Shown here piece by piece: positions 24,765 to 25,070 of a stretch of DNA of 36,397 nucleotides. The notes beneath the pieces were generated by a model that saw only the letters and a program-made list of their open reading frames with translations, had not been told where the DNA came from and made no database searches. Position 1 is the stretch's first letter. Each line of letters starts with the position of its first letter. The DNA lies in the UHGV virus genome UHGV-1376481, one strand, 5' to 3'. The stretch comes from a virus. Both the position numbers and the translations under genes were made by a program.

Positions 24765-24773
24765 TGGTATAAT
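24765..24773 (+). promoter_or_regulatory. extended -10 promoter TGgTATAAT for the small-peptide mRNA
   Basis: TG-N-TATAAT at 24765-24773. No good -35. Confidence 0.35.
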
Positions 24774-24826
24774 AAAATATCGGCTCGTCGCTTCCACAGA
24801 GATTTTCGTGGGAGGAGGTGTATGAT

Positions 24827-24916
24827 TTGTTTGAATTCACTTTGGAGCACGTGCTCTTGCCATTGTTAATTGGTTTAACTTTGGCATTATTTAGTCATTG
24901 GCTAGATAAACATTAG
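24827..24916 (+). CDS. 29-aa hydrophobic peptide (MFEFTLEHVLLPLLIGLTLALFSHWLDKH); candidate Fst/Ldr-like type I toxin
   Basis: TTG start 8 nt after the strong SD GGAGGAGG (24811-24818). Single TM segment with an internal Pro and a short charged tail. The 5' leader can pair TTCCAC/GTGGGA over the SD. Confidence 0.4.
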   Translation: MFEFTLEHVLLPLLIGLTLALFSHWLDKH

Positions 24917-24927
24917 AGCCGACAATG

Positions 24928-24963
24928 GCGCTTACTGTTTCGCAGCGGTAAGCGTCTTTTTTT
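24928..24963 (+). terminator. rho-independent terminator of the peptide mRNA
   Basis: GCGCTTAC...GTAAGCG stem followed by TCTTTTTTT. Confidence 0.6.
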
Positions 24964-24964
24964 G

Positions 24965-25036
24965 AAAAAGAAAAAAACACAACGTATTCGCAGGTACGTT
25001 GTGTTTATGGTGTATATTTGTTTAAATTCACTTTCA
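24965..25036 (-). ncRNA. candidate antisense sRNA (about 70 nt) convergent with the peptide mRNA
   Basis: Perfect minus-strand promoter (-35 TTGACA 25065-25070, 16-nt spacer, -10 TATAAT 25043-25048). The predicted 5' end carries the reverse complement of 25016-25034. Minus-strand terminator ACACAACGTA-loop-TACGTTGTGT (24977-25004) plus T-run. Confidence 0.35.
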
Positions 25037-25042
25037 ATTATT

Positions 25043-25070
25043 ATTATACTTGTTAAATAAATTGTGTCAA
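25043..25070 (-). promoter_or_regulatory. consensus sigma-70 promoter TTGACA-16-TATAAT on the minus strand
   Basis: Read on the reverse complement. Both hexamers are perfect. Confidence 0.5.

Follow-up and report, generated by a model that had tools for sequence, protein, structure and literature searches.

The window analysed here is the virus genome UHGV-1376481 at its full length of 36,397 nt, and the subject of this report is a candidate toxin-antitoxin locus at positions 24765-25070, where a gene for a 29-residue peptide and a predicted antisense small RNA (sRNA) converge from opposite strands. We computed the sequence elements of the locus, the family membership of its peptide, the structure of its messenger RNA (mRNA), the complementarity of the two RNAs and their co-variation among related loci; on whether both RNAs are made, whether they differ in stability, whether translation is repressed, whether the peptide is toxic and what the locus does biologically, we reason by analogy from par(pAD1) and word our statements conditionally.

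A predicted convergent gene pair

The putative toxin gene (24827-24916, + strand) begins with TTG at 24827, ends with the stop codon at 24914-24916 and encodes the 29-aa peptide MFEFTLEHVLLPLLIGLTLALFSHWLDKH. Its Shine-Dalgarno sequence, GGAGGAGG (24811-24818, + strand), is read directly from the sequence, and the TTG follows 8 nt downstream. Upstream lies the presumed promoter of the toxin mRNA, the extended −10 element TGgTATAAT (24765-24773, + strand), again read from the sequence; it has no usable −35 element, and TTGATA lies 21 nt upstream. The form TG-N-TA(T/C/A)AAT is present at every homologous locus, and the base separating TG from the hexamer is variable. The toxin mRNA (the RNA I equivalent) would span ~184 nt, from 24780, as placed from the −10 element, to 24963, as placed from its terminator (+ strand). 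This terminator, T1 (24927-24963, + strand), has a 13-bp stem at 24927-24956 followed by a run of seven T, and carries TTCGCAG (24939-24945) at its tip.

Facing this gene on the − strand is a promoter (25043-25070) that matches the consensus at 12 of 12 positions, with TTGACA at 25070-25065 and TATAAT at 25048-25043, 16 nt apart. It is the only perfect consensus promoter in the window (0.05 expected by chance), and both of its hexamers are conserved in all complete homologous loci. The predicted transcript, an antitoxin sRNA of ~65-72 nt (the RNA II equivalent; 24965-25036, − strand), folds into a mostly unstructured ~30-nt 5′ tail followed by a terminator hairpin. The latter, T2 (24965-25006, − strand), consists of a 12-bp stem (25006-24975), the 8-nt loop CCUGCGAA and a U run; on the + strand its tip lies at 24987-24993. 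A terminator scan of the 1.1-kb region returned three sites, both T1 and T2 among them, where 0.5 were expected. A first-pass annotation of this DNA had described the toxin promoter, a leader fold, the Shine-Dalgarno sequence, the TTG-started peptide, both terminators and the − strand promoter, and all of these are present in the sequence.

The peptide and the Fst family

The window peptide scores 27.3 bits on the NCBIfam model NF033608 (Fst family toxin), passing the curated cut-off of 26, and the variant peptides of related loci score 28.1-37.9 bits, all of them above it. The identical 29-aa sequence in NCBI already carries the name Fst family toxin, with close variants there in Enterococcus faecium and E. 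hirae. Among solved structures the top match is the Staphylococcus aureus Fst-family toxin PepA1 (PDB 4b19, E-value 0.012). The initial impression of an Fst-like peptide is thereby borne out. The sole Pfam match of the peptide is PF13955, in which residues 12-26 align to profile positions 7-21, and no PHROGs family, holin or otherwise, matches it.

The signature of the toxin superfamily is a PXXXG motif in the transmembrane helix together with a conserved Trp before the charged C-terminus (PMC7472228). In the window peptide the motif reads P-LLI-G (residues 12-16) and lies inside the transmembrane helix, while the Trp is W25, between the helix and the charged tail and followed by L-D-K-H. Motif and Trp are also kept in two further types of the locus, B and C, which are described next.

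Three matched pairs of start region and predicted antisense RNA

Two direct repeats tie the sRNA to the toxin gene. Positions 24825-24843 and 25016-25034 are identical at 18 of 19 positions, and the lone mismatch, G24833 versus A25024, makes a G-U pair in the RNA duplex. Even with up to two mismatches allowed, the repeat word has only these two copies in the window, with 0.01 matches expected by chance. The first-pass annotation had correctly given both the 18 of 19 matches and the G-U pair, placing the first copy one base off, at 24826-24844; the repeat is also longer than it had described, extending by GGTGTAT (24817-24823 and 25009-25015) to 26 paired positions when a bulged G24824 is allowed. 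The first copy, the putative sRNA target (24817-24843, + strand), runs from the final 2 nt of the Shine-Dalgarno sequence across the start codon into codon 6, with G24824 bulged; the second (25009-25034, − strand) is the 5′ antisense segment of the predicted sRNA and co-varies with the first in types B and C.

We collected ~12 related loci by pattern scans and exact look-ups; they come from genomes of Enterococcus, from metagenomes and, in one case, from a viral contig. All have the same 5′ leader (TCGGCTCGTCGCTTCCACA...) and both promoters, and their toxin cores are nearly identical. Type A, to which the window belongs together with L007, L011 and L013-15, has the mRNA start region GGTGTAT(G/A)ATTTGTTTGAATTCACTTT, starts at TTG and has the sRNA-side copy GGTGTATATTTGTTTAAATTCACTTT. 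Type B (L008) has the start region AGAATGCATTTTGTTTT with an ATG start and the sRNA-side copy AAAATGCATTTCGTTTT, and type C (L009 and L012) has GAAAAAGTGTTTCTCTTTGTTTT with a GTG start and the sRNA-side copy GAAAAAGTGTTCTCTTTTGTTTT. The start regions of the three types are unrelated to one another, and in each type the copy on the sRNA-promoter side is altered to match. The predicted complementarity of the sRNA to the translation-initiation region is therefore conserved through complete sequence replacement across three types.

Energies agree with this pairing scheme. The window duplex reaches −32.9 kcal/mol (z = −9.6), and the cognate duplexes of the three types range from −30.9 to −32.9 kcal/mol (z = −5.6 to −9.6), against −8.8 to −19.8 kcal/mol for non-cognate duplexes. 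The sRNA-mRNA duplex is retained in minimum free energy (MFE) folds of the dimer, with a net gain of −13.5 to −16.1 kcal/mol. Within type A, the two mRNA substitutions seen in the target segment affect the bulged base and a position immediately flanking the duplex. The early suggestion that the sRNA is complementary to the start-codon region is upheld by these duplex energies and by co-variation of the pairing in all three types.

The types also bear on where translation starts. Differences in the transmembrane core between types are mostly synonymous or conservative. The ATG of type B and the GTG of type C lie at, or one codon off, the position of the window TTG, with 8 and 7 nt, respectively, between them and the Shine-Dalgarno sequence; because they occupy the corresponding place with the same Shine-Dalgarno spacing, they support the TTG start. 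We rejected a 15-aa frame from the ATG at 24822, since this ATG is missing from the closest relatives, which read ...GTATAATTTG. We also rejected the 32-aa GTG start that PGAP gives for some relatives, which overlaps the Shine-Dalgarno sequence; types B and C begin at the TTG-equivalent position. NCBI entries of close relatives (the equivalent of window 24818-24916) either take this GTG in the Shine-Dalgarno sequence as start (32 aa) or are partial. In the E. faecium record that we inspected, no gene is listed at the toxin locus (the PLSDB gene table is incomplete), and the sRNA is likewise unannotated.

Two other loci deserve separate mention. L004 (E. faecium GCA_001545545.1, 3000-3030) carries a type-A variant, GTCTGACTTCACTTTC, with three substitutions in the sRNA target and a peptide that begins MSDFTFEH...; its contig stops inside the mRNA terminator, and the sRNA side lies beyond the contig end. 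Looking up the integrase in search of that sRNA side gave left ends of integrated prophages and nothing else. L010 (on an ERZ1034962 contig, with the cassette on the − strand at ~200-300) lacks the toxin open reading frame (ORF) and both terminators but retains the leader and the Shine-Dalgarno sequence, as well as the sRNA promoter with its −35 element mutated to TTGAAA. This looks like the outcome of recombination between the two repeat copies, and the repeat that is left, GGTAGAAAGCGTTGCTTAAAATTATTTT, would make a fourth specificity type.

Broader searches added little. A scan of IMG/VR with the 19-nt repeat gave one match, inside an unrelated coding sequence, which we judged to be chance, and scans of IMG/VR with degenerate peptide patterns gave nothing or L009 alone. 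With tblastn, the peptide had no match in the phage collection, and among plasmids it matched the source record alone. A blastn search of the region against phages found the tRNA-Met only, so at that sensitivity the cassette is absent from deposited phage genomes.

mRNA folding, split terminators and hairpin tips

The whole toxin mRNA (185 nt) has an MFE of −71.3 kcal/mol (z = −7.1 versus shuffles). In this fold the 5′ strand UCGGCUC (24780-24786, + strand) pairs with the 3′ strand GAGCCGA (24916-24922, + strand), which overlaps the final base of the stop codon. This closing helix, a call that depends on the inferred transcription start, is the equivalent of the par upstream helix; it keeps seven of seven pairs in all seven sequences folded, with a single change, from G-C to G-U, in type B. 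A 5′ stem-loop (24791-24814, + strand), formed by CUUCCAC (24791-24797) and GUGGGAG (24808-24814) in both the MFE fold and the consensus fold, buries the first half of the Shine-Dalgarno sequence, and its seven pairs are kept, one of them as U-A in place of U-G. A second hairpin covers the start codon in the MFE fold. The closing helix, the two hairpins just described and the terminator all reappear in the consensus fold, which was made from seven mRNAs of the three types and contains five compensatory pairs in which both sides have changed.

T1 and T2 stand back to back on opposite strands, each with its own U run, and their stems are unrelated; because each RNA has its own terminator, no overlap between the RNAs is predicted. 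The first-pass annotation had held that convergent terminators define par, and this does not hold, since the described loci share one bidirectional terminator and the window locus has two. In pAD1 par and S. mutans fst-Sm, where the terminator is shared in this way, the two RNAs first meet through its complementary loops (PMC7472228, PMC3543317). In the window and its relatives the same + strand word is found at both hairpin tips and centred on both: TTCGCAG in type A, CAGCAACT in type B and ATTCACAGT in type C. Since both hairpins share one + strand word, the mRNA tip and the sRNA loop are complementary. These words, of 7, 8 and 9 nt in types A, B and C, were reached by 54, 32 and 11 of 200,000 shuffles, respectively, and non-cognate tip combinations share only 4-5 nt, mostly off-centre. 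This pattern suggests that the tip complementarity is a retained, co-evolving kissing-loop contact.

Genomic context of the cassette

A 336-bp region that includes the cassette is 100% identical to pA4694_P2, a 41-kb circular record from an E. faecium blood isolate that is labelled a plasmid. The genes around the cassette are those of a temperate phage, with an amidase endolysin, a large serine recombinase, a GIY-YIG nuclease and an XRE repressor. As the first-pass annotation had stated, the cassette lies between a tRNA and the integrase attP: the tRNA-Met occupies 24654-24727, and attP is an imperfect palindrome (24-nt inverted repeat; 25088-25139) just before the serine-integrase stop at 25142. 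This attP starts ~18 nt past the sRNA promoter, and the −35 element of the sRNA promoter is only ~40 nt from the attP core. Judged from integrated junctions in L005 (270-310) and L017 (2845-2890), the crossover lies near ATCCTTCCGGAA (25108-25119), and attB is inside radC. The same integrase is found in thousands of E. faecium assemblies with the prophage inserted in radC.

The cassette also occurs in other surroundings. In E. hirae it is the final element ahead of the radC junction, and in Enterococcus sp. ZJ1622 a type A cassette lies beside another serine recombinase and a type B cassette beside chromosomal sugar-metabolism genes. Homology between contexts ends at the two promoters, so that the ~300-bp unit behaves as a mobile cassette. 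It had been considered at the outset that the complementarity might be part of a longer repeat flanking attP; we reject this because the repeat lies within a cassette that is found with at least four unrelated downstream flanks, and attP starts past the sRNA promoter. We examined flanks past the sRNA promoter in L008 (1095-1125), L009, L010, L006 (255-300), L011 and L013. Two of the alternative flanks open with tandem words, GACTACC-CTTT-GACTACC in one and GACCATAC-TTT-GACCATAC in the other, which may be protein-binding or attachment sites of other elements.

On the other side of the cassette, no terminator separates the tRNA-Met from the toxin promoter in the window. The window has one copy of this tRNA gene, and both pA4694_P2 (L001, 1730-1803 and 4146-4219) and L004 (431-504 and 2837-2910) have two, flanking a 2.4-kb module (a DUF5960 gene and three small ORFs) that is absent from the window; the module looks like one gained or lost by recombination between the tRNA copies. 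Between tRNA-Met and cassette in the viral contig L009, whose cassette is of type C, there are two ORFs (1071-2039), 160 and 161 aa long. Upstream of the tRNA in the window is a 402-aa ORF (23037-24245), which had been called proteasome-like in the first-pass annotation and is identical in pA4694_P2, and a 429-aa GIY-YIG protein (26560-27849), whose homologue has SNIPE/T5orf172 domains, adjoins the integrase. Both genes are candidate accessory or defence genes.

Interpretation

We consider it very probable that the locus is an Fst/par type I toxin-antitoxin system, carried as cargo at the attP-proximal end of a temperate phage of E. faecium. In the mechanism that we propose, the promoter with only an extended −10 element would make the ~184-nt mRNA, which would be closed by its 5′-3′ helix and have its Shine-Dalgarno sequence and TTG buried by two hairpins; it would encode a 29-residue, single-helix membrane peptide of the Fst family. 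The perfect-consensus promoter on the opposite strand would make an sRNA of ~70 nt. First contact would be a kissing interaction in which the loop of the sRNA terminator meets, tip to tip, the terminator hairpin of the mRNA, after which the free sRNA 5′ tail would form the 26-bp duplex over the Shine-Dalgarno end, the start codon and codons 2-6, blocking ribosome binding. Should sRNA synthesis stop, whether through loss of the element or through transcription shut-off, the more stable mRNA would be translated and the membrane damaged.

Several observations weigh against this interpretation and temper our confidence. Our literature search found no paper, expression data or toxicity data on this locus or its close relatives, and the comparative set is small, with three types and ~10 distinct sequences. 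The Pfam match of the peptide, to PF13955 (Fst_toxin), scores 19.2 bits versus a gathering score of 36 (E-value 0.0012), this Pfam model being narrower than NF033608. Fst(pAD1) has a much longer charged C-terminal tail than the DKH of the window peptide, and the locus lacks the shared bidirectional terminator that counts among the conserved features of par. The mRNA tip word is partly paired in the MFE fold, so that a loop-loop contact would need the top of the T1 stem to breathe, and the type A loop is just UCGC. Lastly, the sRNA aligns end to end with the Rfam family RF02844 (RefA9) below threshold (30.5 bits versus a gathering score of 49, E-value 0.016), and the type B and type C sRNAs are unmatched by RefA9; we use this similarity as a hint only. 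RefA9 is an sRNA mapped in pTEF1 (PMC4408782), and it is par RNA II, since its sequence sits opposite the fst gene in the pCF10 par locus.

Could there be no RNA antitoxin at all? The second repeat might be the relic of a partial duplication of the toxin gene start, with the − strand promoter and terminator present by chance. Direct repeats can indeed come from duplication, AT-rich DNA is rich in promoter-like sites (six in our local scan, versus 6.1 expected), and L010, which lost the toxin ORF between its repeats, indicates that the repeats do recombine. Yet a relic would decay independently of the gene start, and instead three unrelated start regions each keep a matching copy, in which most mismatches either allow a G-U pair or form bulges; there is just one 12/12 promoter in the 36 kb, and relatives conserve its hexamers as well as the − strand terminator, whose stem shows compensatory changes. 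We give this explanation almost no credence. It is also very improbable that the peptide is a regulated phage membrane protein, holin-like or concerned with lysis timing, whose level the antisense RNA only tunes. The locus does lie 1.8 kb downstream of the endolysin gene (amidase, 21912-22922), but the 402-aa ORF and the tRNA separate the peptide gene from the lysis genes, the peptide matches the Fst model and no PHROGs family, and the cassette also turns up among ordinary chromosomal genes and in a small recombinase element that has no lysis genes close by.

A different question is what such a module would do for its carrier. Plasmid stabilisation is the sole proven role in the family (PMC7472228). 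With the same mechanism, the role could be phage defence or superinfection exclusion by abortive infection, and not prophage addiction: an invader would shut off host transcription, the labile sRNA would decay, and the toxin would kill or arrest the cell first. The cassette does lie in a variable att-proximal cargo region beside other accessory genes, its recurrence as a ~300-bp unit in at least four different flanking contexts fits exchangeable cargo, and the roles of non-plasmid par homologues are unknown according to the review by Weaver (PMC7472228). Against this, no Fst-family member is known to act in phage defence, a PHROGs family match is absent, and sequence alone does not separate defence from addiction, so that we regard a defence role as rather unlikely. 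We are also doubtful, if somewhat more receptive, about a further elaboration of the Fst/par interpretation, namely that the Enterococcus cassettes form a distinct par sub-architecture: an ancestral bidirectional terminator would have been split into two back-to-back terminators whose tips selection holds complementary, the pair of start region and sRNA would have diversified into at least three mutually orthogonal specificity types, and the mobile unit of ~300 bp would travel to the att edge of its carrier. In such an architecture the kissing contact may be unable to extend into a duplex, and the cassette, at the att-proximal edge of serine-integrase prophages or islands, may serve as an addiction module or as an abortive-infection trigger.

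As for novelty, automated annotation already recognises the toxin, and what this analysis newly defines is the predicted antitoxin, its target and the structures of the mRNA. In kind the locus is an ordinary, well-preserved member of a well-described family; its split terminators, whose tips co-vary, and the existence of three specificity types vary the par theme modestly. A locus whose toxin is annotated sporadically, often with the wrong start (GTG, 32 aa), thus gains a full antitoxin, target site and regulatory structure. The three types, which combine the same leader and toxin with different target, antitoxin and loop, amount to a natural experiment on the par mechanism, with which the sufficiency of loop-loop contact without 3′ overlap and the origin of orthogonality could be tested. 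If it is true that the module stabilises the prophage or blocks other phages, it bears on prophage persistence in a major hospital pathogen.

Comparison with known systems

Type I systems borne on prophages, or on elements resembling them, are known from Bacillus subtilis, where bsrG/SR4, yonT/SR6 (both of SPbeta) and txpA/ratA (of skin) likewise combine small membrane toxins with antisense RNAs (PMC3834814, PMC4147584). They differ from the window locus in toxin family and in the target of the antitoxin, which is the 3′ part of the mRNA, where pairing mainly promotes degradation. We do not assign the locus to TxpA/RatA, BsrG/SR4 or YonT/SR6, given that no 3′ overlap is predicted and that the toxin matches Fst models only; an Rfam match to SR6 is noise (18 bits versus a gathering score of 55, E-value 3.2).

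The multi-copy systems Ibs/Sib and Ldr/Rdl of Escherichia coli each comprise several paralogous cassettes in which each antitoxin RNA picks its own mRNA by a short variable segment. The coexistence of types A and B in Enterococcus sp. ZJ1622 recalls them, but the antitoxins of those systems fully or divergently overlap the toxin gene. With respect to the toxin itself, Ldr is in the same superfamily as Fst (PMC7472228).

SprA1/SprA1AS and SprA2/SprA2AS of S. aureus encode PepA1 and PepA2, and PepA1 is the nearest solved relative of the peptide. The SprA antitoxin is cis-encoded and acts 'in trans' via a non-overlapping 5′ region, and SprA1 lies on a mobile pathogenicity island (PMC7472228, PMC6393315). 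The staphylococcal toxins differ by the cysteine of PXXXGC, which is absent from the window peptide. With par(EF0409) of E. faecalis and fst-Sm/srSm of S. mutans, the locus shares the toxin family, a non-plasmid location and, by prediction, a repeat-based occlusion of the start codon; their neighbours are sugar-transport genes, whereas the window locus is at a prophage end, and fst-Sm/srSm is described with a bidirectional terminator (PMC3543317). At par(EF0409) a stronger promoter makes the antitoxin in excess, a situation similar to that in the window, where a consensus sRNA promoter faces a toxin promoter without a −35 element (PMC7472228, PMC3543317), and antitoxin excess is also reported for SprA1 (PMC7472228). 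By analogy, this arrangement suggests antitoxin excess at the window locus.

Among the closest known systems are the par loci of the E. faecalis pheromone plasmids pAD1, pTEF1 and pCF10. Weaver names five features as conserved in par-like loci (PMC7472228), and four of them are found at the window locus: convergent promoters, direct repeats, the 5′ stem-loop and the upstream helix. In place of the fifth, a bidirectional terminator, the window has its two back-to-back terminators, with no predicted overlap and only the hairpin tips complementary. The likeness to par extends to the convergent genes, the TGnTATAAT toxin promoter (TGaTATAAT in pCF10) and the PXXXG toxin; to the pairing of the mRNA 5′ end just past the stop codon, for which pCF10 has GGCAGCU and AGCUGCU at the same two places; to the stem-loop hiding the Shine-Dalgarno sequence; and to the sRNA, predicted here and ~65 nt long, in which an antisense tail at the 5′ end precedes a terminator hairpin. 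In both, repeats over the start codon (GGAGGTGT... in pCF10) make the sRNA complementary to the start region, and the pCF10 terminator loop TTCGCCG compares with the window sRNA loop TTCGCAGG in carrying a UUCG U-turn-type motif. Other differences lie in the repeats, which in par comprise DRa and DRb split by a small internal loop and in the window form one 26-bp stretch with a single bulge, and in the toxin, which in the window has the family Trp and a 3-residue tail where Fst(pAD1) has no Trp and a long acidic tail. Finally, par is carried by a plasmid, and the carrier here is a phage.

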